From Candidatus Nanoarchaeia archaeon (GTDB lineage: Archaea > Nanobdellota > Nanobdellia > Woesearchaeales > DATDTY01): DNA of 51,139 nucleotides. Below, piece by piece: positions 296 to 50,534 of the stretch. The translations under genes and the position numbers were made by a program. How positions within the stretch are numbered: position 1 is the stretch's first letter; each line of letters opens with the position of its first letter. The stretch covers positions 1-51,139 of the forward strand of contig DATDTY010000067.1 of assembly GCA_035290625.1 (NCBI GenBank), in the 5' to 3' direction. Below the pieces are notes generated by a model. It saw only the letters and a list, made by a program, of their open reading frames with translations. It made no database searches and had not been told where the DNA came from.

Positions 296-380
296 GGTTC
301 CCTGGCTCTGCAGAAACTCTTTTCTCATTTTGGCTGTACCCGCTTATTTGGAAACTTGCTGCTTTAGATTTAACCCAATC

Positions 381-654
381 AACTGCATTCAAAATCTGCT
401 CCGCAGCTGCCGCCAGCTCGCAATATGCTAATCCCTTTGTATAAATCGGCATTCGCCCCGTAAGGGACTTCCCCCCGATGTCGATGCGATGCTTTTGGTT
501 ATTGAAAATTCGGGGTTTAAGACGCGGGGTTTAGCCCGAATTTTCAATCCCGAAAACCGCACGATCAAAAACCCCGACCTTTAGGTCGGGGATTAGTGCG
601 GTTTTCGTTATTTTGCTCGCACAAAAGGCGGCAGCCCTGATTTTGAATGCAGCT
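381..654. mobile_element. MITE-like element C containing nested element D
   Basis: IR CTGCATTCAAAATC (383-396)/GATTTTGAATGCAG (639-652); inner IR GCTGCCGCC/GGCGGCAGC; direct repeat TTAACCCAATCAA at 370-382 and 654-666. Confidence 0.7.
498..610. mobile_element. Hairpin repeat family D, copy 1 (IS200/IS605-type non-autonomous element?)
   Basis: Hairpins ATTGAAAATTCGGG/CCCGAATTTTCAAT and CCCCGACC-TTTA-GGTCGGGG; bounded by GTTA at both ends; second copy at 13115-13279. Confidence 0.75.
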
Positions 655-664
655 TAACCCAATC

Positions 665-679
665 AAAAACCTTATATAA
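665..679 (+). promoter_or_regulatory. BRE-TATA promoter of the GH130 operon
   Basis: AAAAACCTTATATAA upstream of a GAGGTGA SD and the GTG start at 712. Confidence 0.6.
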
Positions 680-711
680 CCTCGGCGTGTAGGCCAAGTC
701 AGAGGTGAATT

Positions 712-1782
712 GTGAGGATCACTGATAAGCTTCTTATCACTCCAAAGGAGATTGAGCCTTCATTTTCAGAGTGGAAAGTCCAGGGAGTCTTTAATCCTGC
801 AGCAGTCAGGCTGCCTGATGGAAAAATCCTGCTGATGGCCAGGGTTGCTGAGCAGCATCTTCATAATGGAAAGGTCATCCACTGCCCGATGATCACTGAC
901 AGCGGTTTCTCCTCAGAAGCAATCCCGATGAAGATGGTGAGAAAAAGAACAAAGACGCATGTGTACCTCAGAAACGGGGTTTGCCGCCTCACCACCTTTT
1001 CGCATTTTCGAACCATCACCCTCAATGAGGATGGCCTTCATGTTGAGCATGCAGGCAGGAATCCTGCATTCACCGGCTTGCCTGGAGAGGGAGAATATGG
1101 AGTAGAGGATCCAAGGCTCACAAAGCTGCAGCACAGGTATGCCATGACCTATGTTGGGGTTTCCAGAAGAGAAGGTATCTCCACGTTCCTGGCGCTTTCT
1201 GACGACCTTATATCCTGGAAGAGGCAAGGAATCATCTTCAGGGAGCAGAACAAGGATGCAGTGCTGTTTCCTGAGAAGATCAAGGGAAAGTATGTTGCTT
1301 TGAACAGGCCTGAAGGGACATTTGCCAAGCCCTCAATCTGGATTTCGTATTCTCCTGACCTCATCTACTGGGGCAGGGAGAAGAGCCTGCTGCAGCCAAG
1401 GAGCGGCTGGGAGGAAAGCAGGATCGGAGCAGGCACGCCTCCGCTCAAGACCCCAGAAGGCTGGCTCTGCATCTACCATGGCATGCGTGAGCAGAAGCAG
1501 CAACATAGGATTATTCGGAGCTACAGCGCAGGCGCTTTTCTGCTTGACCTGAAGAATCCTGAGAGGGTGCTTGCGCGATCATCAAAAGACATCCCTCTCA
1601 TAAAGCCGAACAAGCCCTATGAGCAAAAGGGATTTATCGCAAATGTTGTGTTTCCGACAGGAGCAGTCATGGGCATCAATAAGAAGGATCTTTTGATCTA
1701 TGCAGGCGGAGCTGATGCTGTGATCAGCGTGAAAAAGATCCGCTTGAAGGACATCTTTAACCACATGGAGTGGGCAAGGTGA
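712..1782 (+). CDS. GH130/DUF377-family glycosidase or mannoside phosphorylase
   Basis: VFNPAA, EDPRL, NKD, IYHG and NVVFPTG motifs of the five-bladed GH130 family. Confidence 0.85.
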   Translation: MRITDKLLITPKEIEPSFSEWKVQGVFNPAAVRLPDGKILLMARVAEQHLHNGKVIHCPMITDSGFSSEAIPMKMVRKRTKTHVYLRNGVCRLTTFSHFRTITLNEDGLHVEHAGRNPAFTGLPGEGEYGVEDPRLTKLQHRYAMTYVGVSRREGISTFLALSDDLISWKRQGIIFREQNKDAVLFPEKIKGKYVALNRPEGTFAKPSIWISYSPDLIYWGREKSLLQPRSGWEESRIGAGTPPLKTPEGWLCIYHGMREQKQQHRIIRSYSAGAFLLDLKNPERVLARSSKDIPLIKPNKPYEQKGFIANVVFPTGAVMGINKKDLLIYAGGADAVISVKKIRLKDIFNHMEWAR

Positions 1783-2486
1783 GGCAAGCCCTCATGCTCT
1801 TGGTATCGGCAGTGCTTCTGTTTGGCTGCAGCCAGGGCAGAGAGATGCAGGAAGCTGGGAAGGGCGTGAACATGGGCAGCATCAAGGATATTCAACTCAT
1901 AACAGAAGATGGAATCAGGCTTAAGGCAACTGTGTATGAGGCTGATGGGCCGGGTGTTGTTCTGCTGCACATGCTTGATAAGAACAGGCATGACTGGGAT
2001 GCTTTTGGAAGGCAACTGCAGTCTCTTGGTTATCACGTCGTCTCTGTTGACTTGAGGGGCCATGGAGAAAGCGATTTGACCTGGAAGGATTTTTCTCCAA
2101 AAGAGTTCAATGATATGGTTTTGGATGCTAAGGCAGCTCAGCAGTATCTGGGAAAGGATGTTGCTGTAATCGGAGCGAGCATCGGAGCAAATATTGCATT
2201 GAATTTTGCCTCTGATGATTCTGTGAAAACTGTGGTCCTGATGTCTCCTGGATTAGAGTACAAAGGTGTGAAGAGTGAGGAAAGCATTGAAAATCTAGAT
2301 AAGTCTGTCCTGATCATTGCTGCTGAAGGCGATACCTATGCTGCTGAGTCTTCCAGGAAGCTGCATTCTTTGAATTCAAATGCAGAGCTGAAGATATACG
2401 ATGGAAAAGAGCATGGAACAGGGCTGTTTGGGAAGACAGATGTTGATAACGTTATGATTCAATGGCTGAAGGAGCATATTAGGTAA
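1779..2486 (+). CDS. Alpha/beta hydrolase, probable lipoprotein
   Basis: GASIG nucleophile elbow, DLRGHGES, C-terminal EHG; signal peptide ending VLLFGC; GTGA overlap with the upstream stop. Confidence 0.85.
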   Translation: MRQALMLLVSAVLLFGCSQGREMQEAGKGVNMGSIKDIQLITEDGIRLKATVYEADGPGVVLLHMLDKNRHDWDAFGRQLQSLGYHVVSVDLRGHGESDLTWKDFSPKEFNDMVLDAKAAQQYLGKDVAVIGASIGANIALNFASDDSVKTVVLMSPGLEYKGVKSEESIENLDKSVLIIAAEGDTYAAESSRKLHSLNSNAELKIYDGKEHGTGLFGKTDVDNVMIQWLKEHIR

Positions 2487-3385: not shown

Positions 3386-3407
3386 GAAGAACTTAGCTAA
3401 AAAAGAA

Positions 3408-3530
3408 TGCTCCCGCCGGGACTTTCACTCACTTCGTTCGTTCCGTCCATTTCGGAACGCCGAAATAGATTTGAACCCGGGTCGAAGCCTCGAGAGGGCT
3501 CCATGATTGACCGGACTACACTACGGGAGC
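3408..3530 (-). tRNA. tRNA-Glu(CTC) with a 48-nt intron at 59/60 (intron 3422-3469)
   Basis: Acceptor GCTCCCG/CGGGAGC, anticodon arm GAGCC-CTCTCGA-GGCTT, T-stem CCGGG/CCCGG; BHB motif TTCA-AAT...TGAA-AGT. Confidence 0.93.
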
Positions 3531-3573
3531 ATATGCCGGAAAAGTCGATGTTGGTTTATAAGTGTTTTTATCC

Positions 3574-3737
3574 GGCGCCATTGAAAAGCCGCTCACTTCG
3601 TTCGGCAACGCCGATTTCGCCATGCGCAAGTCAGGCAGAATAGCGACATATCCCCGAAGGTGGCAACCCCCTTGTCGCTGTGCCAACTTCTGTTTCAATG
3701 GCTCACAAGGGGCGTTGCATGACGTTTCAATGCCGCT
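3574..3737. mobile_element. Structured repeat/MITE family A, copy 2
   Basis: Homologous to copies 1 and 3 with imperfect TIRs; compensatory GCAACGCC/GGCGTTGC versus GCAGCGCC/GGCGCTGC. Confidence 0.85.
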
Positions 3738-14823: not shown

Positions 14824-14849
14824 TATGACCTCCGAGGAAAGAATTCATT

Positions 14850-14878
14850 CCTCAAACAGCAGCGCTGTTATCATCAGT
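14850..14878 (-). promoter_or_regulatory. Putative K-turn in the rpl7ae 5'UTR
   Basis: Transcript reads CUGAUGA-U-AACAGC-GCU-GCUGUU-UGAG (tandem G.A, U.U, stem); the C-stem is weak. Confidence 0.5.
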
Positions 14879-15157
14879 TACGAGATGGAATAGGGGGGGT
14901 TTTATAAAGGTTACTGTGCGGATGTCAAGAACCTCCAGTCACCGCTCCTTTCAGTCGCTAGAGACGGGTGGCATGATGTAGCGTGGTTCTTGAGCACACT
15001 CATTCCACCAGTGAAATACACTGACGGAATTTCATTGTTTAAAGAATTGAACCGTCAGAAGGGGTTACAGGAATATCTAAATGTTTAGAATTCAGGTAGA
15101 CAGTTCTTGGAGGAGCGATTGCCGGAAGTTTGCCTGGGTTTTCTGCAATTGCCGGAA

Positions 15158-17306: not shown

Positions 17307-17912
17307 CTAAGGCCAAGATTCCAACATTCCTCCACTCCGCAGAAAAATTAATGCAGCAAAAATCCCGATACCCAATGCAATGCTCACGGCAAGCAAAACC
17401 GGCAGCACATATGCCGCCACAAACGACCTCATCTTTGTTACCTTATGCACCTCAGCAAAGAAGAGCAGTGCTATGTGGATCTGGTAAATCAGGACAGGAA
17501 TCCCTACAATCAGGCTTGCCAGGATCTGAAGCAAGCCTGTCCCGAAGATGGCGTAATAGACTCCCTGGAATGGCGCAAGAAGCATCGAAGGTGTCTTTGC
17601 ATAGACTGCTGCCTGGAATGTTTTTTCATACGCCCCCTTTCCCCTGACCAGGAGGAACATCAGGTGAATGATGCCAGTGCTTATGAAGATTCCGGCGATG
17701 GAAATCCCAAATCCAAAGAGGAGCCCAAAGAACAGAGGGAATGGTGAAGGTATCGCCTGCCGCATAATCACGCCTGCAGAAAACACCACTGCAATTGCGG
17801 CAAACAGCAGAAAGTAGAGGAACGCGTCCTGGATGCCTTTCTCTTTCCTCAGCTTCGGCAGAAACGCATTCGGCTTCGAAATGATCGCAATCGCTGTCTG
17901 GAACGGGTTCAT
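17307..17912 (-). CDS. Yip1-domain membrane protein
   Basis: About 5 TM segments; KPNAF and HLMFLLVRGKGAYEKTF patterns. Confidence 0.8.
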   Translation of the reverse strand: MNPFQTAIAIISKPNAFLPKLRKEKGIQDAFLYFLLFAAIAVVFSAGVIMRQAIPSPFPLFFGLLFGFGISIAGIFISTGIIHLMFLLVRGKGAYEKTFQAAVYAKTPSMLLAPFQGVYYAIFGTGLLQILASLIVGIPVLIYQIHIALLFFAEVHKVTKMRSFVAAYVLPVLLAVSIALGIGIFAALIFLRSGGMLESWP

Positions 17913-17959
17913 TACTATAGATATGAGAGATGCCCTTTAAATAGTTTTGCGGAGACTGA

Positions 17960-18104
17960 GGCTCAGTAGAAAGTCCGGCATCATTTCTTCGAGCTTCTTC
18001 AGCTTCATCAGCACTGCTGGCAGAGAGTTGCCCCATCCGGGGGTGTCAGCAAACAGTGAAGGAAGCACAAGCGAGCTCGATGCCGATTGACTTTCTACTG
18101 AGCG
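17960..18104. mobile_element. Structured repeat/MITE family B, copy 2
   Basis: Colinear with 151-295; lies between divergent promoters; flanking duplication degenerate at best. Confidence 0.85.
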
Positions 18105-18159
18105 TGGCCGAGAGAAAGCTATATATAGCAGAGGAGGTTTGATAGGGCAGGGGGAAATC

Positions 18160-18474
18160 ATGATTGTTGTCACGACCGAAGCGGTTGAAGGAAAGATCAT
18201 CAAGCAATGTTTGGGAATGGTCCGCGGCAGCACCATCAGGTCACGATGGCTTGGCAGGGATATCATGGCAGGCCTGAAGACACTGGTCGGCGGAGAGATC
18301 AAGAGCTATACTGATATGATGAACAAGGCAAGGGATGAGGCTCAGGCAAGAATGGAAGAAGAAGCAAAAAAGCTCGGGGCTGATGCAATCGTAGCTGTCC
18401 GCTTTTCAACTGCAAATGTCATGCAGGGAGCTGCTGAAATCCTGGCATACGGGACTGCGGTGAAGCTGAGGTAA
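18160..18474 (+). CDS. UPF0145/YbjQ-family protein
   Basis: MIVVTTE...GLKTLVGGEIKSYT...GADAIV...AYGTAV. Confidence 0.92.
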   Translation: MIVVTTEAVEGKIIKQCLGMVRGSTIRSRWLGRDIMAGLKTLVGGEIKSYTDMMNKARDEAQARMEEEAKKLGADAIVAVRFSTANVMQGAAEILAYGTAVKLR

Positions 18475-19787: not shown

Positions 19788-20010
19788 TAACGTAAATTCT
19801 TACATATCTCCAAGAACCGATACCAACACAAAAATATAAGAACGCTATCCACAAAAACAAACTCACTGAAGTTAATAATAAAATAAGAAAGAAAAATAAA
19901 CCACCTATAAAACTACTTACACTAATACAGATAAATAAGAGAAGATTTATTTTTTCTTCTTTGCTCAGTATATCATTCTGAACATTTTGCATGTTTGTAG
20001 TTTTCCCCAT
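19741..20010 (-). CDS. Small hydrophobic hypothetical protein
   Basis: Mostly TM; overlaps neighbours in a co-directional run. Confidence 0.5.
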   Translation of the reverse strand: MGKTTNMQNVQNDILSKEEKINLLLFICISVSSFIGGLFFFLILLLTSVSLFLWIAFLYFCVGIGSWRYVRIYVNEKRNYPLTNINTTV

Positions 20011-20224
20011 CCAATTTATCGAGTTGTTCTTTACTTATATAAACTAAATTGGAATTATCTACATTGTTTATAGAGCACTTAAACAAGTCGTATGTTGTAT
20101 TAGAAGAAACATCTAAAACATACCGACTCTCTGAAACAGCTTTATAGGTTCCATACAACCCTAAAGCAACGATACCTAGTAACAGGAACGTACCTACTAC
20201 TATAGCTTCTCCTTTTTTGTCCAT
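19973..20224 (-). CDS. Small exported protein with a class III (prepilin-like) signal
   Basis: Likely start MDKKG-EAIVVGTFLLLGIVALGL at 20224. Confidence 0.55.
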   Translation of the reverse strand: MDKKGEAIVVGTFLLLGIVALGLYGTYKAVSESRYVLDVSSNTTYDLFKCSINNVDNSNLVYISKEQLDKLDGENYKHAKCSE

Positions 20225-20370
20225 TGGACTATACTCATACATTTTTGGACTATTTAGTTCTTTCTTTGTTACTCTGGAGTACTCAGAATGTATAAAAACT
20301 TTTAGGTTATCCGATGAGACTAACCTAACTAAGTGACGTTTACTTAACCGTTCATTACACGTAATTAAAC

Positions 20371-21033
20371 CTATTTGAAAGTATGGGATAAAATTAACAG
20401 CACAAAAATTAATCTCAAAGACCATTGTTCATTTGCGTAATTCGGTTGTATGCCGTGCATAACATCATTTCTAAATTCCCATAACTTTTTGTATTTCCAA
20501 ACTCGAGTTTTGAATTGTTCTTTTGACATAAATTCACAAAAGTTTTTGTCGAAAAGAGCGTGTAGTTCTTTTAAAACCTTTTCCATATTAGCATAACCTT
20601 TTCCTTGAATCCGCCCTCCCTTCACAATATTCTTCTCCTCTCCAAACTTGATAAATATGCCATCTATTGATAAAAGTAATAAAGGAATTGAGACATAATA
20701 ACCTTCTTTCCTGTTGTTGATGTGAGCAATTAATGCTCTGTTGATAACCTTATAGTATGGTTTAATGAACTTATTTGACCTGAACAATCTAAGAAGCTGT
20801 TTAACATCTTCTTTATCGGTTACGAAATTGTTGAATCTATTGTGAGTATGGTCATAAAAAGAGGAATAAGTTATTGGGAGTTCTCCGTGTAATATCCATT
20901 TGTGGAGAGAGTTTCTTATTTTATTATAACGTCTCTCTTGAAGCTTACCTGCCGTCTCCAATGCCTGATTTAATGCTTTAAATCTTGCACTAATCAACTC
21001 AATAACCCCAAAGATAGGTTTTCTTGGCGTCAT
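20371..21033 (-). CDS. Hypothetical protein with a HEPN-type RNxxxHG motif
   Basis: LLSIDG...FRNDVMHG followed by a terminal helix. Confidence 0.6.
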   Translation of the reverse strand: MTPRKPIFGVIELISARFKALNQALETAGKLQERRYNKIRNSLHKWILHGELPITYSSFYDHTHNRFNNFVTDKEDVKQLLRLFRSNKFIKPYYKVINRALIAHINNRKEGYYVSIPLLLLSIDGIFIKFGEEKNIVKGGRIQGKGYANMEKVLKELHALFDKNFCEFMSKEQFKTRVWKYKKLWEFRNDVMHGIQPNYANEQWSLRLIFVLLILSHTFK

Positions 21034-21099
21034 ATAGCCTATGACTTACAAATAGTATAAATACCTATTCTAATTTTTTCTTTATCGAGATTGATTCAG

Positions 21100-21642
21100 T
21101 TATCCCCGATTAAAAATGAAAGCTAGAACAGCAATGATTACTGCTACAATTGCCCAGAAAATGGCTACATCTTTGATGATTTTCTCCCCAGACAATTCTG
21201 AATACAGTCTTCCAACTTCTCTAAATCTTAATAATCTATCCTCCATCTCCAAAGCAGTATGGGGATTCTCCAATTCCTTTCTCAATTCCTTTATATTATC
21301 CAGCTTCTTTCTATAATCTGAATTCTTTATGAAATAATATCTACAAAATAAAAGAATCTCATGCAAACTTGAAGTCAGATTTTTCTCTTTAAATGAAATA
21401 TAGGTTTGCCACACCATTATCTCATAACTATGAAGTCTTTTTCTGATTGCAGTTTGGGGCTGAAGAGGCGGCTCCTTATCCGCAAAATAATCTTTGGTTA
21501 TATTCACATAATCCGAAAAGTGCTTAGTCACCTGAGAATAATAGTCTCTATAGTCCTTCAAAGATAGACGTTGAGCTGCTATCTCTTTGCTTATAGTAAC
21601 TACATTTTCTCCGAATTGTAATATCTCTGAGGATAGACTCAT
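21100..21642 (-). CDS. Hypothetical protein with a C-terminal TM anchor
   Basis: Helical body ending AIFWAIVAVIIAVLAFIF; ATGA-coupled to the upstream ORF. Confidence 0.65.
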   Translation of the reverse strand: MSLSSEILQFGENVVTISKEIAAQRLSLKDYRDYYSQVTKHFSDYVNITKDYFADKEPPLQPQTAIRKRLHSYEIMVWQTYISFKEKNLTSSLHEILLFCRYYFIKNSDYRKKLDNIKELRKELENPHTALEMEDRLLRFREVGRLYSELSGEKIIKDVAIFWAIVAVIIAVLAFIFNRG

Positions 21643-21827
21643 CTTAAATAATCCTTCAATCTAATAAGGAAGTATACTAAAAGTAAGACACTTGCAATGC
21701 CTAATATCAAGGATGCTAAACTGTTAAGATTGTTCACATCAACAAATCCTTTTAATAAGAAGAATGCAAAAGCCCCATACAAAATACTCCCCCCTATGAT
21801 GAAAAATAGAGTATAGTGAGGTTTCAT
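21639..21827 (-). CDS. Small 2-TM hypothetical protein
   Basis: 62 aa with two TM segments; TATA-like element upstream. Confidence 0.6.
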   Translation of the reverse strand: MKPHYTLFFIIGGSILYGAFAFFLLKGFVDVNNLNSLASLILGIASVLLLVYFLIRLKDYLR

Positions 21828-25138: not shown

Positions 25139-25371
25139 GCCATACTACTTGGGAACTGGGTTTATAAGGGTTTCGAGGTCCGGCAGGGTTACCTCTTCCG
25201 ATGAGCGAAGCGATACATCAAGAACAGGTATCAAGTGGGAGTTCGTTTCCAAACCGAAGGCTCTTTTTGTTAATGCAATCGGGGGAGTTCCGTTAGTTAG
25301 GTTCTCGTGGACCAAATATCACTCACAAGTAGAAACATTTTTAAATACGCGGATATGTCTAATACAATAAG

Positions 25372-27081: not shown

Positions 27082-27093
27082 GCTAGCATCAAA

Positions 27094-28770
27094 ATGAATA
27101 AAAATGAAATATACGAGAGAATTAAGCAATACTTCCCGCTTCAATTTACTGAGAACCACATTTCTGAATACTTAGTACGATGTCTTAGGGCCGTTGCTCA
27201 AAAGATAGATTCCGATGATTTGGCAAGGTTGAATGGTTCTGCTGGTAAATCTGAATTCAAAGGTTTAGTTGAAAAATATTCATCAGTCCCAAAGGTTGGA
27301 GAGCCTGCAGAAGAGGTCTTAGAAAGCATTGTTAATGATTTGTTCTCACGTGTTCCAAGATGGCGGAGTCCGGAACTACAGTATAATGTCGGAACTGCCG
27401 TAAATTCGGTTGCTTTAGCGGCTTATGTCTTAGCATTAGAGGAGAATATCTATGCGATAAATGATGGCCTAGCAGGAAACTCTCTTGTAGCAGAAGAAGC
27501 TGTTTCTAGCATATTAGCCAGAGATCTTGCGGGTGTTGAAAAAAAAGCAAGAGGCTTCTTTACATTTGGAGGGACTGCTACAAACTTATATGCTAAAAAA
27601 TTGGGCATAAAGAAAGCCGTCCCAGGATCCTCAAGGAAAGGCAATACTGAAGGAATTAAGGCAATGGTCACAAGAGACTGCCACTTTTCTCATGACGTTT
27701 CTATTGATTGGCTAGGCATTGGCAAAGATAACACAATAATAATTGAGCCAGGAAGTGACAGAAGAAGTAATCTGGATGATGCCGAAAGAAAAATAAGAGA
27801 GGCGCTTGATTCTGGTGGAATACTAACTTCCATAGCAGTTAATGGGGGTACGACATACAATCACATTGTTGATGGTATAAACGGATTTGTCGAACTTAGG
27901 GATAGGATTGTCCAAGAATATTCTTTAAGTTACACTCCTCACGTCCATGTTGACTCTGTAATCGGATGGTCATGGCTATTTTTTAGAGGATATGACTTTG
28001 AAAATAATCCGTTAGATATTAATCAAAGAGCTTTAAACATGATTAGAGAACAGTATGGACGAATTTCTCACATTAATATGGCAGATTCATGGGGTGTTGA
28101 TTTTCATAAAGGCATCGGTGCCTGCCCAGTAGATTGCAGCGTTTTCATGGTTAATGATGAACGGGATTTGAGATATATCTCAAAGAAGGGAGAAATTGAC
28201 ATTCATCATCTAGCTGAAGAATTTAGTTTCACAAGCCCAGTAGATTTTACGTTAGAAACTTCTCGATCAGCAGGTCCTGCTTTATCAGCACTAGCCTCTC
28301 TTCGTCTTTTGGGATTAAACGGTTACAGAAGAAATCTTGCTAACTTGATAGAGCAGACCGTAGTCATGAGAGACTCGTTGCGTGAACACAAAGACATGTA
28401 CATTTGTCACGAAGAAGCCTCCTTAGGTTTTGTGACAATGCTTCGGTTTTATCCTCCCGAACTTATGCGAGACCCGAGATTATGTATTGAACTCTCCGAC
28501 CCATCTTTGGATACAAAAAACATCAGCGAACAAGTTAACAAATATATGAAGGAATTTTTCACATGGGACGAATCTACGAGAATGAGGGCGGGACGCGGTG
28601 TGGAGTATTCTATCAGTTCCGGTTATATTACTTTATCAAATGGTGCAAAAATAACTGGTGTAAAATTGTATCCTGTATCACCTCATTTTAATGAGCAATA
28701 TGCAAGGAAGGCTGTTGAAACAATTGTATCGCAGAAGAAAATATTTGATCAACAAGTTAAGGGAAAATGA
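27094..28770 (+). CDS. Group II PLP-dependent decarboxylase
   Basis: GGTATN, HFS, GGTT, HVHVD and DSWGVDFHK (PLP lysine). Confidence 0.85.
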   Translation: MNKNEIYERIKQYFPLQFTENHISEYLVRCLRAVAQKIDSDDLARLNGSAGKSEFKGLVEKYSSVPKVGEPAEEVLESIVNDLFSRVPRWRSPELQYNVGTAVNSVALAAYVLALEENIYAINDGLAGNSLVAEEAVSSILARDLAGVEKKARGFFTFGGTATNLYAKKLGIKKAVPGSSRKGNTEGIKAMVTRDCHFSHDVSIDWLGIGKDNTIIIEPGSDRRSNLDDAERKIREALDSGGILTSIAVNGGTTYNHIVDGINGFVELRDRIVQEYSLSYTPHVHVDSVIGWSWLFFRGYDFENNPLDINQRALNMIREQYGRISHINMADSWGVDFHKGIGACPVDCSVFMVNDERDLRYISKKGEIDIHHLAEEFSFTSPVDFTLETSRSAGPALSALASLRLLGLNGYRRNLANLIEQTVVMRDSLREHKDMYICHEEASLGFVTMLRFYPPELMRDPRLCIELSDPSLDTKNISEQVNKYMKEFFTWDESTRMRAGRGVEYSISSGYITLSNGAKITGVKLYPVSPHFNEQYARKAVETIVSQKKIFDQQVKGK

Positions 28771-29627
28771 ACCAACCCCAAAAAGAAATCAGTAGCTTGC
28801 TTGATTATTCTCATGAGGTGACTGGACTTGACCAATTTATTTTATATGGGGGAACTCCGTTAGATTTAATGATTCATGGAAGCTATCATGATATTGATCT
28901 TGCAACTCAAGGGAAGAGTGAAGAATGGATTACTGCGTTAAATAAACAATTTTCAGCGAAAGGATTTGATGTAATTCAACCAAGAAGGCCGTATCAAATA
29001 CGTAATGGCTCCGTAGAGGTTATCTTAGTTTATGCCAAAAATGATGCTAATTTTTTTGATGTTTGTTTTATGGAAGACTTAAGTTTAATTGGACTATTTG
29101 ATATAGAATCATCTTACTGGAAATATCCGAAAAAAGAGCATGTTGACCAATATAATGCACTTGAAGCATTAGCGTCAAAGTGTATTAGGCCAATAAGATC
29201 ATTTGAATCAGAAAACCCATTATTGTGGTTCTCACGATTTGTACGTCTTTGTTCAAAATACAATTTTCAAATGACCAATACCTCCCATGCTCCAATAATT
29301 GATGCAATAAATTCAAGAGTTGGTTATGATGAACAGACTGTTAGTTCACCCCAATATTCCTCAGCAGTATCATCTGTTTTCAGTGCAATATTGCGAGCAA
29401 AAGACCGTCAAAAGTTTTCTAGTGAACTTATTGAAACCGGGTTGATACGTAAGCTTCTACCAGAACTGGATAAATTTTTAAGCAGAACGAATGAAGACGT
29501 GCTGATCAGAATTAGAAACAGAGAAGAATTTTGTGGCATTTTAAGAGAAAACCTTTCACCTGAAGAAAGAGTAGATCTCGACAAAAAGTTACAGGAGTTA
29601 AGCTACAGAAGTTGGGAAAATGAGTGA
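28767..29627 (+). CDS. Nucleotidyltransferase, degenerate class II CCA/poly(A)-polymerase-like
   Basis: LYGGTPLD...DIDL motif A; ENPLLWFSRFVRL resembles EDPLRxxRxxRF. Confidence 0.65.
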   Translation: MNQPQKEISSLLDYSHEVTGLDQFILYGGTPLDLMIHGSYHDIDLATQGKSEEWITALNKQFSAKGFDVIQPRRPYQIRNGSVEVILVYAKNDANFFDVCFMEDLSLIGLFDIESSYWKYPKKEHVDQYNALEALASKCIRPIRSFESENPLLWFSRFVRLCSKYNFQMTNTSHAPIIDAINSRVGYDEQTVSSPQYSSAVSSVFSAILRAKDRQKFSSELIETGLIRKLLPELDKFLSRTNEDVLIRIRNREEFCGILRENLSPEERVDLDKKLQELSYRSWENE

Positions 29628-30651
29628 TAAAATGGAAAAAATTGAGTATTTATTACATTTGCCAAGTGAATATCAACTTATGTTAGCAAGTTTTTTCGTT
29701 ACTAACCCCGTTGCTTTACAAAGAATGAAAAAACAATGGGTTGAAAGAGATACTGAACACAAAGTAAGAGGAAGAACAGACGCACAGTCTAAAGAATTTA
29801 GGAATGATCTTCTTGGTGGGGCTGTTTGTCTTTTTGATCCGAACAGAGTTGATTTGGGTTTTCTGGCAGAAGTTAATGTGCCAACCGCATCTGGTTTATA
29901 CTATCCTCCTTCAGAGAAGGCTCTATATGTTGGAAGTAATATGTATGTGAAGAAAGTTCAGAGAGGAAAAGTTGTTGACACATTAAACAATAATTTGTTC
30001 TGCGATGTACACACAATTGAAGAAGGACCAGATAAGAAATTGCTTATCGCTTCCACGGGTGTTGATGGGATTCTCCTAATAGATCCTAAAAGTCCTCAGC
30101 GAGTGATTTGGGACTGGCTGGCTACAAAGCATGGATACAATAGAACGCCAGATGGAAGAAGAAGAAAAATTGATAGGGGGGTAAATTATCAAGAGGTTTA
30201 TTCAATAACACCAGATCACACCACCCATCTAAATACGGCTATTTTTCACAACGGCAGGATTTATGCTTGCTTATTCCACCAAGGTTCTCTGGTTGAGATT
30301 GATCCAGATACAAGGAAGCATGATGTTGTTCTAGAGGGAATGATCTGTCCCCATCATATTAAGCCAAGAGAAGGGGGGTATATTATTTCAAATTCAAGAG
30401 CAAATAAGGTGCTGTTGCTTGACGGAGGATTTAATGTCACAAGAACTATAGATGGTGATTTTGATTGGGTTCAGGATGCTACCCCACTAGAAGATAATAA
30501 ATACTTGATTGGCGATTCTAATAATAATAGGTTTGTAAAAGTTGATGAACATGGTTACAAAATCGATGAGTTAAGGTACGAAGAGAGGAAGATGTTTTGC
30601 TTTCTACCAATCAAAAAACAAGACGTTGTGGAGATTTTTGGGGCATCATAA
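29620..30651 (+). CDS. Beta-propeller protein (NHL/sulfotransferase-like)
   Basis: DVHT, IASTGVD, HLNT, PHHI and IGDSNNNR blade patterns. Confidence 0.6.
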   Translation: MSDKMEKIEYLLHLPSEYQLMLASFFVTNPVALQRMKKQWVERDTEHKVRGRTDAQSKEFRNDLLGGAVCLFDPNRVDLGFLAEVNVPTASGLYYPPSEKALYVGSNMYVKKVQRGKVVDTLNNNLFCDVHTIEEGPDKKLLIASTGVDGILLIDPKSPQRVIWDWLATKHGYNRTPDGRRRKIDRGVNYQEVYSITPDHTTHLNTAIFHNGRIYACLFHQGSLVEIDPDTRKHDVVLEGMICPHHIKPREGGYIISNSRANKVLLLDGGFNVTRTIDGDFDWVQDATPLEDNKYLIGDSNNNRFVKVDEHGYKIDELRYEERKMFCFLPIKKQDVVEIFGAS

Positions 30652-30653
30652 AA

Positions 30654-31802
30654 ATGTCATTAACAATAATCATCTCGGCGCTTAATGAAGAACAAAATAT
30701 TGAAGCTGTTTTAAGTAAGCTAGAGAATCAAGTTGATGAAAAAGGGAATGTGTTAGACAAAGATAAGTATAATGTACTTGTAGTTGATAATGGAAGCAGT
30801 GATGATACGGCAAAATTAGTCAGGAGATTTAGTGAGCAGAGCGAATTGCACATTGGAATGACGTATGAACCAGTTCAAAACATAATCACTGCAAGAAGAG
30901 CTGGTGTTCGAGAATTGCAAGCAAATAAATTTTATGCCAACACTAGATTTCTAGCTTTTTGTGACGCTGATGTTTCTGTCCCTGGCGAATGGATTAGTTC
31001 AATGATGACAGGATTTAAAGATAGAGGCACTGGAATTTTATCATACAACGGCTCGTTTCCACACAGTTTTTGGGAAAAAGTACCCAGACTTGTTGAAAAA
31101 TACGTCTTGGAGGTAGGAACTTTATTCTTTCCAATGGAGACCATAACCTATTATGAGGTGCATAAAAGAGATGTTAAGTTTACTAGACAGATATACTCTG
31201 ATTTTGTAAGACCGCCAAGCGGTGGTTTTTATGCCATTAGATTAGATCATTATAATTCTGTTAATGGTTATGAGAGAGAGTTTACTGATGATGGTAAAGA
31301 GGTTGATGGGCCAACATGGAGACTATACATCAAACTGATGGGCGCAGGAGCTAATCTTAAATTTATTCCTGATATTGAAATGATTAATAGTGAAAGAAGG
31401 TTATTAGGAGCCCCCGAGAAATTCTTCAGAGTCCAGGAATACGATCAACTAAGTGATCTTAGGCAGGATCTGCGAGAAAGAAGTGACAGCCAGTACAGTT
31501 TTGTTGATAATTTAGCGAGTTCTATTGACTTTACCCCTGTACAAAGATATGTGACTCAATATTACTTGTTATTTCCATGCGTTAATAGACCAGAACTTAT
31601 AGGATTGAATGAAACGTATTTTGGCTCATTAAAAAGAGCTGTAGAAACAGATATTCTTCAGTGGAGATCAAAGAATAACCGTGCAAGAGGACAGGATGTT
31701 TTTAGATTTTGTGATGAGTTAACTGACAAATACTCTGATAAATTATGGCATGAAATACCAACTGGGAGGGAAGAAGCTCAGCCACCAAAATCCAGAAAAT
31801 GA
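30654..31802 (+). CDS. GT2 glycosyltransferase
   Basis: IIISALNEE, VVDNGSSDDT and FCDAD motifs; start at 30654. Confidence 0.85.
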   Translation: MSLTIIISALNEEQNIEAVLSKLENQVDEKGNVLDKDKYNVLVVDNGSSDDTAKLVRRFSEQSELHIGMTYEPVQNIITARRAGVRELQANKFYANTRFLAFCDADVSVPGEWISSMMTGFKDRGTGILSYNGSFPHSFWEKVPRLVEKYVLEVGTLFFPMETITYYEVHKRDVKFTRQIYSDFVRPPSGGFYAIRLDHYNSVNGYEREFTDDGKEVDGPTWRLYIKLMGAGANLKFIPDIEMINSERRLLGAPEKFFRVQEYDQLSDLRQDLRERSDSQYSFVDNLASSIDFTPVQRYVTQYYLLFPCVNRPELIGLNETYFGSLKRAVETDILQWRSKNNRARGQDVFRFCDELTDKYSDKLWHEIPTGREEAQPPKSRK

Positions 31803-32815
31803 GAATAATAGAAGATGATCAGGTACATTCAAAAGCTTCTGATGGTAATTGGAGACCATCACAAGTAGTTGAAGAAGCAAAACAAAGAGGTCTCCAAGCA
31901 ATTGCTCTTACTGACCATGACACTACTTTTGGTGTTCCTGAAGCCCAAGAAACTGGAAAAAGGGTTGGAGTAATTGTGCATAGTGGTATCGAAGTTAATT
32001 CTTCCTATCAAGACTCAGATGTAACCTTAGATAGTTTAGATATATTAGGCCTAAAAATGAATCTAGATTTAATTCAGCCACTTGAGAGTAAACTGTCTGT
32101 CTATAGGCATGATGCACTTGATAGGATCATAGATAAGCTTAATCAGTATATCTCTTCAGAGGAGTTTGAAAGAGATGATAGGGAGAAAAGGTACTCTCTT
32201 AAGAGTCCAAGAGTAATAAGCGTCGACGATCTCATTACCTGGAAATGTGAATGGAATGATTATAAATGTGAAGTGCCATACATTTCTGATTGGGAAATTG
32301 CATTTTATGCCTTTGGTCGTTTCGCTCCTCACTTGAATTTAGAGAAAAGAACATTGGGTGGGGACAGAAGTGTTATGAAAGAAATAATGAGAGAATATCC
32401 ATTTTTATTCCAAAGAACAACCAGGAGGCCATCCTGGGAAGAAGCGATGAGAGAAATTAAAAATGCCGAAGGTTTAGCTGTATGGAGTCATCCCGGGCGG
32501 GCACTTTATTATCAAGAAAGCGGGCTAATTAAAGAATGGGAACTCGACGAAAATGGATGGTGCTTACCTGAGAGAAAGAAAAGTCCATTTGCCGTAGCAC
32601 AAAAATTAGCTGAAAAAGGATTGGATGGGATTGAGTTGTATTATTATGCTGGAAATGATACTCTTCATGGTCATATACAAGAACAGATCAACAAGTATTT
32701 TAAATTAATGGCAGAAACATTTGGACTTATGGTCACTTATGGATCTGACTGCCATGGACCGCGATTAAGAGAACCGTATATGGGGGTATTTGGTTCTTCT
32801 ACGCTGATATTGTAA
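31799..32815 (+). CDS. PHP-family phosphoesterase
   Basis: QVHSKASDG, ALTDHD, GIE, SHPG and GSDCHG motifs. Confidence 0.88.
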   Translation: MRIIEDDQVHSKASDGNWRPSQVVEEAKQRGLQAIALTDHDTTFGVPEAQETGKRVGVIVHSGIEVNSSYQDSDVTLDSLDILGLKMNLDLIQPLESKLSVYRHDALDRIIDKLNQYISSEEFERDDREKRYSLKSPRVISVDDLITWKCEWNDYKCEVPYISDWEIAFYAFGRFAPHLNLEKRTLGGDRSVMKEIMREYPFLFQRTTRRPSWEEAMREIKNAEGLAVWSHPGRALYYQESGLIKEWELDENGWCLPERKKSPFAVAQKLAEKGLDGIELYYYAGNDTLHGHIQEQINKYFKLMAETFGLMVTYGSDCHGPRLREPYMGVFGSSTLIL

Positions 32816-32820
32816 TCAAG

Positions 32821-33654
32821 ATGGAAATCATAAACAAAACCATGGACCGGGGAGATTTGTTTACTGATGAATCTATGCCCGCAATAAACCGGATTGATGA
32901 CTTGATTCGTGACATTTACTCTAGGGGATTGAATATCACAAACTGGTATGGTTTTATGACAGACGACAGAGAAGCTGAAAGTCTGCAGGGTGTTGGGATA
33001 GACAATAGAGGTTCAGATTATGAGCCGCTCACAGGAGTTGTTGATGATGGAAGATTTCCATGGTACTTATATTGGGAAACATGTACCGTCCTGGCAAACG
33101 GCCCTAAACTAAAAAAAGACCATGTTGTTTTAGATGCAGGAGGAACTTCTTCTTTATTTAGTTGTTATCTTGCTTCTCGAGGAGCCGAGATGCATTCGAT
33201 AGATTTTAATGAGGAAATTGTTGCGAACGGCAATAAGTTAAGCCAAGAGATGGGTTGGAATATGTCCTCATACCATATGGATATGAGGACACTGGATTTC
33301 CCTGACGAATTTTTTAATCACGCTTATTCGATTTGTGTGTTTGAACATTTAGAGTCTAGAGTAAAGCAACTTGCATTAGAGGAGATTGCAAGATGCTTGA
33401 AACCAAAGGGGATGTTATCAATAACTTTTGATTACAAAAATCCTGCTCCTGATGTCTATCCAATTGGGCCGGATACAAGTTCTGAGAATAGACCCTCAAC
33501 AACAGAAGATATTGGGAGGGCATTTCTTTCAACAGGGCGTTTTGAGTTAGTAGGAAACAAAGAATTTTTTGATAACGGGAAAACATATTTAATGAACCCT
33601 AAATTTGGCAACCGTCCCTATACTTTTGGAGCGATATTTTTACAGAAAAAATAG
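32821..33654 (+). CDS. Class I SAM-dependent methyltransferase
   Basis: VLDAGG, DMRTLDFPD, SICVFEHL and RCLKPKG motifs. Confidence 0.88.
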   Translation: MEIINKTMDRGDLFTDESMPAINRIDDLIRDIYSRGLNITNWYGFMTDDREAESLQGVGIDNRGSDYEPLTGVVDDGRFPWYLYWETCTVLANGPKLKKDHVVLDAGGTSSLFSCYLASRGAEMHSIDFNEEIVANGNKLSQEMGWNMSSYHMDMRTLDFPDEFFNHAYSICVFEHLESRVKQLALEEIARCLKPKGMLSITFDYKNPAPDVYPIGPDTSSENRPSTTEDIGRAFLSTGRFELVGNKEFFDNGKTYLMNPKFGNRPYTFGAIFLQKK

Positions 33655-33690
33655 TAAACTTATTAAATAAGATTAAACATAATTGTAAAA

Positions 33691-34239
33691 ATGGATATCG
33701 GATTTGCAATACTTTTAGAGGATGAATGTTACAACTACTCTCGTAAATTAGAATTAAAACTATGTGAAAAATTCGGTTTATGCTGGGGCTTGAAGCAAAG
33801 TCCACACATAACCATTAAGGCACCATTTGAAACAGACAAATTAGGCCCATTTGTAAAATATCTGAAGAGCTTGGCAAAAGAGATATCTCCATTTGAAATC
33901 GAATTAGAAGGGTTTAATTACTTCGGGAATAAAGTTATTTTTCTTGATGTAAAGAGAAACAAGCAGCTTAAAGAGTTGCATTTTAGAATCTTAAGAGATT
34001 TACAAAGTAAGTTTAGTATCAATCCGCACGAATTGGAAGGTAAACATGTAAAATTTCATTCTAGTATTGCTACTGGCGACGTGACTGAGGAAAAGTTTAG
34101 GAAAGCAAAGCAATATCTGAAGAAATATCATCCAAACTTTAAGTTTACAGCAAAGACTATGGGGATTTTTTATTATCTTGGTGAAGATGCTGGATGGATT
34201 ATAGTAAGAAGGACAAAGTTTAATAGAGATAGAAAATAG
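33691..34239 (+). CDS. 2H phosphoesterase (2'-5' RNA ligase/YjcG-like)
   Basis: Two HxT/S motifs: PHITIKAPF and FHSSIA. Confidence 0.85.
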   Translation: MDIGFAILLEDECYNYSRKLELKLCEKFGLCWGLKQSPHITIKAPFETDKLGPFVKYLKSLAKEISPFEIELEGFNYFGNKVIFLDVKRNKQLKELHFRILRDLQSKFSINPHELEGKHVKFHSSIATGDVTEEKFRKAKQYLKKYHPNFKFTAKTMGIFYYLGEDAGWIIVRRTKFNRDRK

Positions 34240-41914: not shown

Positions 41915-42448
41915 TCACTTCATAAGCTCTCTTGGAACTTCAAACTCCTGTTCAGAATACACGATATCCTCGGTCTGGGAGATGCATCTTTTGCAGATAT
42001 CCATCATCATCGAATACTTCTCTATGATCTCCTGGCTTTGCACCGAAGAACCATATCGCGCATCCTCCCTTTCATCTACGATGCTTCGTTGTTCCTTTTC
42101 GCTATGCACAGTAATCCGGTCAATGAAGTCTCCATCATAGTCTATGAGGCCTTTCTCCTTAATGTATTTCAGGAACAATGCAGTGCATCTCTGGCTCCTG
42201 CTCTCTACTCCGAATTTCGCAAGGATCGCCAAAGCGCAATAGTACAAAGTGTAAAACCATTCTTCAGGAATCTTGTAATCCAGTCGTCTGGCCTTGAATA
42301 AATCGCACGTGGCAAGATTTGTTTTTGCCTTGCTGATGTATTCTTCCGCTTTCTTATCATTTCTCCTGACGATCAGCAGCCCTTTGTGCTTCTTTCCTTT
42401 CTCTTCAGCCTTTTTGGCATTTACAAAGCAGTCTCTTGTCTTATCCAT
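41915..42448 (-). CDS. HEPN-domain protein, pair 2
   Basis: FYTLYYCALAIL...REDARY. Confidence 0.8.
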   Translation of the reverse strand: MDKTRDCFVNAKKAEEKGKKHKGLLIVRRNDKKAEEYISKAKTNLATCDLFKARRLDYKIPEEWFYTLYYCALAILAKFGVESRSQRCTALFLKYIKEKGLIDYDGDFIDRITVHSEKEQRSIVDEREDARYGSSVQSQEIIEKYSMMMDICKRCISQTEDIVYSEQEFEVPRELMK

Positions 42449-43040
42449 GTATCTTCCTCATAATCCTGATAAAACTCTCCTGTCCAAACAGGACAACTCC
42501 TTTTTTCACTGCGGCAATAAAGGCTTCATTGGGCTTCTGAAGCTCTTTCCTGAATTCTTTCTCGGTGAAGTGTACTGCATGGATCTTCCTGTCTGCTGTC
42601 CTCTGGATCGTATCCAATGCCTTCTGTATCGGGGTGAATTTGTCTTTTCTTGCAACTCCAATGATATCTATATCATGTGCCTGCTTAGGAGAATGGAGAA
42701 TGCTTCCGTAAAGGATGAGAAAATCAGTCTTGGATCCAAGTTCTGCAAAATCTGCCTGCCATCTCCTCTGTTCCATGGCTTCCTCCGCCAGATACAAGGC
42801 AAGAGCTTTTTCCATTAATGTGCTCTCCCAATTGAGGCTTATCGTATAGGTGCTTGTCTTTCCGCTTCCGATGGGGTTGAGATTGATGTATCTTTTCCTC
42901 TCAAGCTTCTTGAGAACCTTCCACATGCCAACACGGCTCATCTTCAATTCTCTGGCAAGAGACGTGATGGTGTGATGCATTGAGGGGTCTTTAAGTAAAG
43001 CTCTTAGCACGGATTTGGAGATGTTTTTCTCTATTTCCAT
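42441..43040 (-). CDS. wHTH-MNT, pair 2
   Basis: HTH TITSLARELKMSR; LYGS...HDIDII. Confidence 0.82.
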   Translation of the reverse strand: MEIEKNISKSVLRALLKDPSMHHTITSLARELKMSRVGMWKVLKKLERKRYINLNPIGSGKTSTYTISLNWESTLMEKALALYLAEEAMEQRRWQADFAELGSKTDFLILYGSILHSPKQAHDIDIIGVARKDKFTPIQKALDTIQRTADRKIHAVHFTEKEFRKELQKPNEAFIAAVKKGVVLFGQESFIRIMRKIHG

Positions 43041-43097
43041 TTTGTTAATAACTATTAACTAGATGTTGACAGGTATATATAAACGTTTCTATTCTCA

Positions 43098-43261
43098 GGT
43101 GGCATTGAAAAGTTGCTCGCTTCGCTCGGCAGCGCCAGGTTCGCCATGCGCAAGTCAGGAAGAATAGCGACATTCCCCGAAGGGGGCAACCCCATTGTCG
43201 CTCTGCTGTCTTATTTTAAGATGGCTCACAAGAGGGCGCTGCATGACTTTTCAATGCCACC
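43098..43261. mobile_element. Structured repeat/MITE family A, copy 3 (complete, with 8-bp TSD)
   Basis: Perfect 16-bp TIR GGTGGCATTGAAAAGT/ACTTTTCAATGCCACC; TATTCTCA at 43090-43097 and 43262-43269. Confidence 0.9.
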
Positions 43262-43404
43262 TATTCTCAATACCCTACTGGAAGATGGAATGTCATAATA
43301 ACCACAGTACCCTCAACGCGTTCAAGATGGTTGGGAAATCTCAATTTGACGGAGACTTTACGGGATCATACCGGGATACCGCAGGAGGAATGATGTTAAA
43401 CTTT

Positions 43405-48912: not shown

Positions 48913-49109
48913 ACCTGTACTGAGTTCAAAGTGGAGTTATAAAGGTTGCGGCGAGCCTGTGAAGATGATTTATGAAAATAGAACACTCACTTCTTGAAAT
49001 ACTTTATAACGGAAAGTGCCTCTGAACAACTGTGCGTTCCCCCCTTTACCCAACACCCTGTCTCCGGGCGATCCAACAAAAGCTCCTCCGCGCTTTCGGC
49101 TATCGGCCT

Positions 49110-49652
49110 TCAGCTTAATATTTCCTCAATTCTGGTAATAAACTCTTCCGCATCCTCCAGGCTGCTGGCCGCATTTTCCCCTGAAATCGCAGGAGTTGCA
49201 TCATATTGCGCAGTTTCTCTTCGTGTTTTGGTTTGGATAAGTTTATTGATCAACTCCTCACTCAACACATATGCTTTCGTCAATTGCTGGATATGCTTAG
49301 CTTCCAGATTCTTCTGTTGATGAACGTAGTGGCGTTCCAAGACCGCGATAGTAGCAGCATGGCTTTTGGACTTAAATCCAAGTCGCGCCAACGCCGCCAG
49401 CGCAGATACATACATTGAATAATATGAGACAATAATCACCCAATCGTACGTTTCAAAATCAGAGGCAAGGGTAAGAACTTTCTTTAACTCCTCCTGTCCG
49501 GAAATCTTAAACATTAAATTCGCAACCGTATAATTTTTTCTTGCTTTTCCCAGGAAGGGTTTTTCAAGTTTTGTGTATTCCTGATCTTTGAGCAGCTGTT
49601 CCTTGCGTAGGTAAGCATCAATTTTCTTCTTCAAAATGTCTATTCTTGCCAT
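49110..49652 (-). CDS. HEPN-domain protein, pair 4
   Basis: SYYSMYVSALAAL...KSH...RETAQY; start MARID at 49652. Confidence 0.85.
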   Translation of the reverse strand: MARIDILKKKIDAYLRKEQLLKDQEYTKLEKPFLGKARKNYTVANLMFKISGQEELKKVLTLASDFETYDWVIIVSYYSMYVSALAALARLGFKSKSHAATIAVLERHYVHQQKNLEAKHIQQLTKAYVLSEELINKLIQTKTRRETAQYDATPAISGENAASSLEDAEEFITRIEEILS

Positions 49653-50281
49653 GCAACTAACCTCCAAAACTGTTCTGAGCCGTACAGCGGGATTCCGTAG
49701 TCTCTGGCTTCTTTTCCAACATTCATCTCCTTAGATTTGAGCATTTTTTTAAATTCTTCTAGGTCAGCTATGAGGGGGCCTATCTTTAGATTATAAGAAT
49801 ACTGATAACTTGCGCATTCTCGCTCTATTGCCTCTCGCGCCGTCTTATTTTTGATATCGCTTACCATAAACAAGAGGTCGGCATCTGAGATTTTTGTAGC
49901 CGTACCTTTTGCATAGCTTCCAAACAGGACAATAGAATGGATCTCAGCAGTAAATGCTGCAGTTATTCTGGAAATCAGGCCTTCGAGAACAGCTTTTAAT
50001 TTAGGATTGGCTTTATACAATGCCTCTTTTTTTGTTAAATCCACTTCTTGGAGAAAATAACGGCATCGAGGGCTGTCAAGATTGAGGAAAGACTGTTTTG
50101 CCCTGCCAACCGTTTTTACAATAATGGCTTTTTCTTTCTCTAACTCAGTGATATGGTTATACGCCGGGCGATATCCTATCTTTAGCTTCTTAGAGAGTTC
50201 TAGGATAGTAAGCCCTCTGCCAAGTTCTTTTCTCAGCCTTCCGATTATTTTCAAAGCAGTTTCTCTTCTCATATTATTCAC
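49640..50281 (-). CDS. wHTH-MNT, pair 4
   Basis: LTILELSKKLKIGYRPAY HTH; LFGSYAKG...SDADLLF. Confidence 0.88.
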   Translation of the reverse strand: MNNMRRETALKIIGRLRKELGRGLTILELSKKLKIGYRPAYNHITELEKEKAIIVKTVGRAKQSFLNLDSPRCRYFLQEVDLTKKEALYKANPKLKAVLEGLISRITAAFTAEIHSIVLFGSYAKGTATKISDADLLFMVSDIKNKTAREAIERECASYQYSYNLKIGPLIADLEEFKKMLKSKEMNVGKEARDYGIPLYGSEQFWRLVAWQE

Positions 50282-50330
50282 TTAATGAATAACATTATTC
50301 ACTTTAGTATATAAAGATTGCTATTCTGGG

Positions 50331-50534
50331 GGCTCAGTAGAAGCTGAGCTTTCCACTGGTGTTTCACCGGTGGCGTAACCTTTTTCTGCAGCCCCCGTCT
50401 CATTTCAGTAAGGCTGCAAAGAAGAGGACCAAAACCAACGTACGCCTTTTGGACACTATCCGTATAGAGTTAAAGGTTTGAGTCAACCTGACGAGTAGGT
50501 ATGATCCGTCTTCCTGCACTAGGTTCTAGATACT
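50331..50534 (+). mobile_element. Hairpin-rich left end upstream of tnpA; starts with the family-B terminus
   Basis: GGCTCAGTAGAA identical to the B TIR start; hairpins GCTCAG/CTGAGC, CCACTGGTG/CACCGGTGG and TGCAGCC/GGCTGCA. Confidence 0.55.

Follow-up and report, generated by a model that had tools for sequence, protein, structure and literature searches.

Contig DATDTY010000067.1 of a Candidatus Nanoarchaeia archaeon (order Woesearchaeales; assembly GCA_035290625.1) carries several short repetitive elements that end a few nucleotides upstream of TATA boxes, raising the question of whether such elements are directed to promoters at the moment of insertion. A first-pass annotation of this stretch, whose 51,139 nucleotides are called the window in the following, had listed seven gaps of 11-16 nt between an element edge and a TATA-like box and had proposed promoter-targeted integration, with survival bias in a compact genome as the alternative. 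The geometry is borne out by the sequence, although two of the listed items had been mislabelled. The window is the complete contig C67 of a genome (G000) of 1.37 Mb in 84 contigs, rated at 100% completeness and 1.14% contamination, with a coding share of 86%; it encodes the archaeal markers L7Ae, aEF-2 and aIF5B. The genome is present in groundwater and soil metagenome runs. The closest genomes in the collection share only the order with it, and the order comprises very many families, with genomes of 0.6-2.7 Mb.

The reading proposed here, to which a probability of about 0.55 is given, is that miniature transposable elements with inverted repeats (MITEs) of this genome and related insertion sequences (ISs) of the IS5 family have a duplication of about 9 bp ending at the upstream edge of the core promoter, which consists of the TFB recognition element (BRE) and the TATA box; that this arrangement is due neither to chance nor to survival; and that it likely reflects capture by the transposase at the edge of a promoter bound by TATA-binding protein (TBP) and transcription factor B (TFB).

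Families of miniature elements

The element families were delimited by BLAST, alignment and nhmmer. Family A elements are about 164 nt long and family B elements about 145 nt, with three and two copies in the window, respectively (Table 1). In the whole genome nhmmer gave 118 matches for A and 68 for B, which together with the BLAST matches of family C merge into 179 intervals covering 22 kb; the intergenic DNA outside these intervals amounts to about 170 kb. Another family, D, is represented by 17 paired copies. The elements are non-coding, multi-copy and 145-245 nt in length, and terminal inverted repeats of 15-23 nt are found in families A, B, D and F. A direct repeat of at least 6 nt, with at most one mismatch, flanks 37 of the 44 elements with both ends defined; its length is centred on 9, with boundaries ambiguous by up to 2 nt, and in families A and B it always lies outside the inverted ends. 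Inverted ends, target duplications, short length, absence of coding sequence and multiple copies identify the elements as MITEs.

Position of the elements relative to core promoters

When the flanks of 147 A and B ends are read outwards, mostly one side displays 8-10 unconstrained nucleotides, corresponding to the duplication, followed by a BRE-like (C)GAAA(C), a TTTATATA-like box and, about 30 nt further on, a start codon. Core promoters were scored with a 16-nt matrix for BRE and TATA box, trained on 549 upstream regions having no element within 250 nt in order to avoid circularity, with 8 bits as threshold for a match. Genes were called with a home-made procedure, whose set lacks RNA genes and small genes. 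Of the 321 best sites above 8 bits in the element-free upstream regions, 189 have the motif beginning 35-39 nt ahead of the predicted start codon, a spacing that suggests a predominance of leaderless mRNAs in this organism.

The excess over random intergenic positions that the first-pass annotation had expected is indeed present genome-wide. A core promoter match of at least 8 bits lies 6-11 nt away from 56 of the 146 A and B ends with at least 60 nt of flank, all of these flanks being distinct, as compared with 1.47% of 334,566 random intergenic position-directions. The distances peak at 7-8 nt before the BRE matrix (41 of 146 ends), equivalent to 14-15 nt ahead of the TATA box; in family A, 24 of 37 adjacent ends share the modal value of 7, and in family B 10 of 21 share that of 8. 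Promoter sites within 20 nt of an element fire away from it in 64 cases and towards it in 5. Both orientations of the element occur, since the promoter is faced by the right end in 22 cases and the left end in 15 for family A, and by the left end in 13 and the right end in 8 for family B. Irrespective of family and of element orientation, the promoter-side joint is found 5-6 nt before the TATA box and on the BRE side only. Overall, 27 of the 44 elements with both ends defined are promoter-adjacent (18 of 24 for A, 8 of 19 for B and the single mixed A/B match), as are 11 of the 17 copies of family D. Targeted promoters do not differ from the others in matrix score, the medians being 12.5 and 12.7 bits, respectively.

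Insertion sequences in related genomes

Three hundred genomes of the order were searched for DDE_Tnp_1 transposases, and multi-copy cases were retrieved. One genome (G219) contains ten identical copies of an 890-bp IS, whose ends resemble those of family B. All ten are flanked by a perfect 9-bp duplication; on one side, or in one copy on either side, this is separated by 6 nt from a TATA box, and every target reads duplication, R, N, A, A, N, N and TATA. When scored with the matrix trained on G000, 10 of 10 copies have a match of at least 8 bits at distance 8 (P=6e-21 relative to the local background). Being identical, these copies are young and have left little time for weak selection to act; they represent the strongest argument for site choice at insertion. 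The same geometry is displayed by a 990-bp IS of a second genome (G157) in 4 of 4 intact copies (P=9e-9), each with a 9-bp duplication, and by single related IS copies in G109 and G128, where it was judged by eye.

These related ISs are 0.89-0.99 kb long and contain one open reading frame (ORF) of 268-288 aa between inverted ends of about 16-18 nt; in G219, G109 and G128 the ends are similar, not identical, to those of the MITEs. The transposases of G219 and G157 both match Pfam DDE_Tnp_1 (PF01609), with DDE_Tnp_1_5 additionally found in G157. With the NCBIfam model transpos_IS5_2, which has a cut-off of 140, the G157 protein scores 155 bits, above the threshold, and the G219 protein 116.5 bits, below it. 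The Y-R-E-K signature is present, residues D100, D151, D170, Y215, R218, E222 and K229 being invariant in a 9-sequence alignment. Identity between the G157 transposase and the plasmid IS5-family transposases among the matches listed is 27-29%, covering 89-95% of the G157 protein. On these features both transposases are assigned to the IS5 family, as putative IS903-like members.

Proposed mechanism and alternative explanations

The promoter is host DNA, as shown by the location of the duplication, which separates the inverted end from the BRE. Moreover, BRE, TATA box and gene stay intact, because up to the joint the native sequence is re-created by the duplication, and what remains of the staggered cut points away from the promoter. 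The earlier claim of insertion just outside the BRE, with the promoter preserved, therefore stands, the positional preference exceeding both the intergenic background and a null model that takes survival into account. The placement likely results from a transposase steered by the BRE/TATA core or by proteins bound there. The joint is fixed relative to the TATA box across families, which argues for a cue supplied by the host, and the obvious candidate would be the TBP/TFB complex; in archaeal initiation, the upstream edge of this complex is the BRE. TBP and TFB could thus plausibly guide the insertion. In the proposed scheme, an IS5-family DDE transposase, IS903-like and producing a 9-bp duplication, would be supplied in trans and move the MITEs; the cue would be the promoter complex rather than the naked sequence, and the elements would benefit from a safe harbour, given the coding share of 86%.

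A transposon of a different family displays the same arrangement. An IS6-family element at the start of contig C49 (positions 1-915; L114), 915 bp long, has 12-nt perfect inverted ends unrelated to those of the MITEs, and in its right flank 8 nt, corresponding to an 8-bp rather than 9-bp duplication, are followed by 6 nt, a TATA box (11.6 bits, distance 7) and an ATG 30 nt later. In a more tentative extension, the archaeal pre-initiation complex, formed by TBP and TFB on BRE and TATA box, might be a landing beacon for unrelated DDE families (IS5 and, with one copy, IS6), the joint falling at the upstream edge of the TFB footprint; homing to TFIIB-family proteins might then be an old and general safe-harbour strategy that shapes archaeal intergenic DNA.

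Several observations weigh against promoter-edge capture. A match at distance 5-12 is missing for 17 of the 44 A and B elements, and 8 of the 40 elements in gaps classed by the orientation of the neighbouring genes have no promoter match in the gap. Four B and three D copies lie between convergent genes, where several weak A-like matches are also found; as these B and D copies are real, targeting is not absolute, and it represents a strong preference and no rule. A single IS copy in a further genome (G290) lacks the promoter-edge geometry, as judged by eye, the IS6 case consists of a single copy with just one visible flank, and an autonomous parent with matching ends was not found in G000 or in one metagenome scan. 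To these are added the target motif of IS903 and the gap statistics, which are taken up with the alternatives they favour, and the fact that protein-guided capture and direct reading of the DNA are inseparable from sequence alone.

The main alternative, less probable than capture at the bound promoter, is direct DNA reading, in which the transposase or its end-binding domain recognizes the BRE A-tract and the T-rich box where these flank the 9-bp target at one side, elaborating a preference of the IS903 type, with TBP and TFB uninvolved. The target motif published for IS903 is WTTYA-N9-TRAAW, with a 9-bp duplication (PMC2577343, in its Table 1), and 10 of 10 targets in G219 carry AA where this motif has AA after the duplication; it is this agreement that keeps direct reading a live alternative. 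Furthermore, in families A, B, D and F and in the G219 IS an A-tract is seen by eye 10-15 nt inside the tip of the inverted end, approximately the distance at which the BRE A-tract lies outside it. However, in G000 no matching A-tract is seen on the far side of the elements, with 4, 8 and 5 of 23 at the corresponding positions, nor does a symmetrical motif appear, and direct recognition could then only be one-sided. AA pairs are by themselves too frequent to account for 10 of 10 targets, and direct reading would need far more specificity; in addition, the IS6-family copy shares the geometry despite its different ends and its 8-bp duplication.

Far less probable is that survival alone produced the pattern, through random insertion and persistence of only those copies that spared genes and promoters. 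Gaps are tight, the free space on the far side having a median of just 36 nt where the other side is promoter-adjacent, and survival bias therefore does contribute, as the first-pass annotation had considered. Selection would also treat all transposon families alike, and the spread of elements over gap types follows their share of free bases: 88 are found in tandem gaps, 41 in divergent and 15 in convergent ones, against 82.6, 45.3 and 16.1 expected. This crude count is based on 144 classed intervals; 25 lying at contig edges, 2 located within gene calls and those shorter than 60 nt were left out. Thus, the comparison with convergent gaps, from which a depletion had been anticipated, reveals none, an outcome that would look like a refutation by the second criterion of the first-pass annotation; the position within a gap provides a sharper test.

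A survival-aware null model was therefore built on the positions within gaps. Every harmless placement was allowed, their number being left space plus right space plus 1 for each gap, any such placement being harmless because the duplication rebuilds both neighbours. The test includes 28 elements, namely the 40 in classed gaps minus 4 sharing a gap and 8 without a promoter match. Distance 7-8 is occupied by 16 of the 28, compared with 2.77 expected (P=6.5e-12), and distance 5-12 by 22, compared with 10.08 expected (P=2.3e-9). Where 108-268 nt are free on the far side, copies are still found at distance 6-8, distance 8 is shared by all ten identical copies in G219, and near-consensus copies, taken as the younger ones by this age proxy, are adjacent to promoters no less often than the diverged copies (P=0.67 and 0.80). 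Survival thus plays a part but is unable to give base-pair precision. Finally, it is hardly credible that the promoter belongs to the element, as an outward-firing BRE/TATA core at one end that is donated to the neighbours in the manner of the promoter-carrying MITEs of bacteria, such as the Correia elements (review PMC10969869), since this is refuted by the target duplication between inverted end and BRE, the spacer is different at every copy, either element end can face the promoter and targeted promoters score like element-free ones.

Comparison with known systems

The ISs of G219 and G157, with their 9-bp duplications and DDE_Tnp_1 transposases, and the window MITEs with matching end architecture resemble IS903 and IS5-derived MITEs. 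IS903 is the type member of its IS5 subgroup. It is described with a weak palindromic target motif and with capture by H-NS-bound DNA (PMC2577343, PMC11335895), the latter being documented for IS5-family elements (PMC11335895). Differently from IS903, the cue described here is one-sided and base-precise, and it is the archaeal core promoter.

Insertion at a promoter edge is known in Bacteria, where TnGBS, ISLre2 and ISKra4 insert at a spacing of 15-17 bp from the -35 box of sigma-A promoters, on its upstream side, leaving the promoter intact; the authors propose a contact with the initiation complex, the transposases being Mutator-like and the insertion occurring mostly in one orientation (PMC3942029). 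The fixed distance upstream of the promoter core is common to these systems and to the elements of G000, which share a behaviour and not a membership. Conversely, the archaeal cases involve IS5-family ISs, both orientations and BRE/TATA rather than a sigma-70-type promoter.

Archaeal TFB and Brf1 belong to the same protein family. In yeast Ty3 and in the tRNA-gene retroelements of Dictyostelium, a narrow insertion window is set by a complex of TBP and the TFIIB-like Brf1, providing a safe harbour in compact genomes (10.1101/2021.07.27.453949, PMC6101501, PMC5006619); Ty3 reaches Pol III genes by way of TFIIIB. Those elements are retrotransposons with an integrase, which use Pol III start sites and the downstream edge of the complex, whereas the present elements are DNA transposons found at the upstream edge and at all gene classes, including tRNA genes. 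Among archaeal ISs, ISH6 prefers an AT-rich target, and a bias to promoters or intergenic DNA has been suggested (PMC3942029); its AT-rich motif is itself duplicated, whereas here the 9 bp are unconstrained and the motif adjoins them.

Promoter-edge targeting is therefore known for bacterial TnGBS and ISLre2 and for yeast Ty3, whereas insertion of archaeal ISs or MITEs at the BRE/TATA edge was not found described in a literature search that covered mainly openly accessible journals and main texts (the supplementary tables of PMC3942029 may list archaeal cases). In a 2026 census of archaeal ISs (PMC13343696) the terms promoter, TATA and target site are absent; a MITE census mentions a MITE-dense Woesearchaeal genome (PMC11602168). 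Term look-ups in these two papers and in the MITE review PMC10969869 gave no such description either.

If the proposed reading is true, transposons would mark promoters at base-pair resolution in uncultured archaea, beyond the reach of transcript mapping, and the tolerance of more than 100 mobile elements by very small, 86%-coding genomes would be explained. It would also offer a simple, testable system for TBP/TFB-guided target capture, linking TnGBS, Ty3 and archaeal ISs, and a transposase of about 270 aa with a defined promoter-proximal site could serve as a tool in archaeal genetics.

Parent elements and other transposons in the genome

The metagenome scan was performed with a B-type end and gave 18 loci, all of them MITE copies or single ends, with no autonomous element; 17 of the 18 match G000 contigs at 99.7-100% and one (L024) at 96-98%. 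The sole DDE_Tnp_1 match in G000 is a 516-aa transposase on the 2.3-kb contig C61 (L011), part of an element of about 1.65 kb with inverted ends of about 20 nt. It was rejected as parent, its ends being unlike those of the MITEs and its insertion interrupting an ORF; it also represents a G000 transposon lying away from a promoter edge. IS200/IS605 TnpA (Y1) transposases were rejected as movers because they do not match the inverted ends and duplications of the MITEs. Six matches to TnpA are present in the genome (C49:16170, C46:22216, C18:70, C72:23333, C39:6 and C41:4681), two of them at contig ends, and the window contains no Y1 match. ISL3 and Mutator-type (Transposase_mut, PF00872) transposases gave no match in G000.

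The IS6 family was also followed in the relatives, where ends and duplications could be resolved automatically at 1 of 21 loci. At some of these loci two or three end-like palindromes of the GGTACC/GGTATC-TAAA type are stacked directly beside TATA boxes (Table 1), as though a single promoter had collected several ends.

Features of the window

The coordinates of the elements and of the core promoters beside them are collected in Table 1.

Table 1. Mobile elements, core promoters and other features of the window, with the stacked palindromes found at IS6 loci of related genomes
Feature	Position	Strand	Basis or remark
MITE A1, family A, clipped by contig start	1..141	+	nhmmer model positions 25-163
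MITE B1, family B, adjoining A1	151..295	+	nhmmer full-length match; 9-bp direct repeat either side
MITE F, 16-nt inverted ends, 10-bp duplication 371-380 and 654-663	381..653	.	sequence
BRE/TATA core of GH130 gene (712-1782; Pfam Glyco_hydro_130)	664..679	+	matrix 12.8 bits, 10 nt from F end
tRNA-Glu (CTC anticodon in DNA), about 47-nt intron in T-loop region	3411..3529	-	read by eye
BRE/TATA core of tRNA-Glu gene	3554..3569	-	matrix 13.8 bits, 4 nt from A2 end
MITE A2, family A, old copy, degenerate ends	3574..3737	+	nhmmer model 2-163
Hairpin repeat C2	13112..13279	.	between ndk start and end of upstream gene
'Hairpin 14925' of the first-pass annotation, unique DNA upstream of L7Ae promoter	14921..14993	.	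BLAST self-match only in G000
BRE/TATA core of Yip1-domain gene (17307-17912; Pfam)	17935..17950	-	matrix 10.6 bits, 9 nt from B2 left end
MITE B2, family B, flanked by two divergent promoters	17960..18104	+	nhmmer full-length match; sequence
BRE/TATA core of YbjQ-family gene (18160-18474; Pfam)	18113..18128	+	matrix 15.4 bits, 8 nt from B2 right end
BRE/TATA core of gene 42441-43040	43075..43090	-	matrix 16.0 bits, 7 nt from A3 left end
MITE A3, family A, 9-bp duplication 43089-43097 and 43261-43269	43098..43261	+	143 nt free on far side
BRE/TATA core of nucleotidyltransferase-domain gene (49640-50281; Pfam)	50307..50322	-	matrix 16.0 bits, 8 nt from 50331
Two-copy repeat with B-like terminus ('tnpA leader' of the first-pass annotation)	50331..50545	+	89% identity over 215 nt to C49:22534-22748
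Stacked palindromes beside IS6 genes	L107 1092-1162; L110 1068-1160; L109 2338-2440; L103 1084-1133		inverted-repeat listing

Among the gaps listed earlier, those of 11 nt between A2 and the TATA box at 3555-3562, of 16 and 15 nt between B2 and the boxes at 17936-17943 and 18120-18127, and of 14 nt between A3 and the box at 43076-43083 were confirmed, each with a matrix match at the distance given in Table 1. For the box at 671-678 the TATA is real, and the element named beside it, C, proved to be merely a hairpin repeat (495-610) nested within F, which is the outer element. Relatives of F are found on contigs C8, C44, C2 and C69, and copies of hairpin repeat C on contigs C84, C33, C28 and C55 (BLAST); C2 of the window lies away from any promoter edge. 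The 15-nt gap between position 50331 and the box at 50308-50315 is correct, while its label as a tnpA leader is not, since a 215-bp repeat with two copies in the genome is found there, whose second half is about 95% conserved with respect to C49:22534-22748. The ORFs behind it have no Pfam family; within 50331-51139, the repeat is followed by an ORF whose match to HisG is confined to the C-terminal half (profile positions 78-158), and hisG may be truncated or broken in this region. Similarly, the distance of 16 nt between the hairpin at 14925 and the box at 14901-14908 holds, and this hairpin, which has no Rfam match, is unique DNA and was not shown to be an element. The L7Ae gene beside it (14824-14908) has its TATA box 78 nt ahead of the ATG, unlike the mostly leaderless genes of this genome, and its leader contains a TGATGA motif, which may presumably be a kink-turn site for autoregulation.

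In A2 a duplication is not detectable. The TATA box facing it stands 24-31 nt before the tRNA-Glu gene, which was not detected by ARAGORN or Rfam; the position of its intron is non-canonical, and a 13-nt string is common to this intron and to the left arm of family A elements. For A3, four metagenome runs, with short and low-depth contigs, gave no joint or bridging piece, and the loose ends found were the flanks of other copies. At the window start, the metagenome contig L030 links C67:1 through a full-length A element to C21:8535, and contigs C67 and C21 are therefore neighbours; the missing left end of A1 faces a promoter-like flank on C21. Finally, two stretches of the window (19900-21700 and 25300-34200) have a guanine plus cytosine content of 34-38%, against about 46%, and are probably foreign DNA, since their long ORFs score poorly under the codon model of the genome itself.

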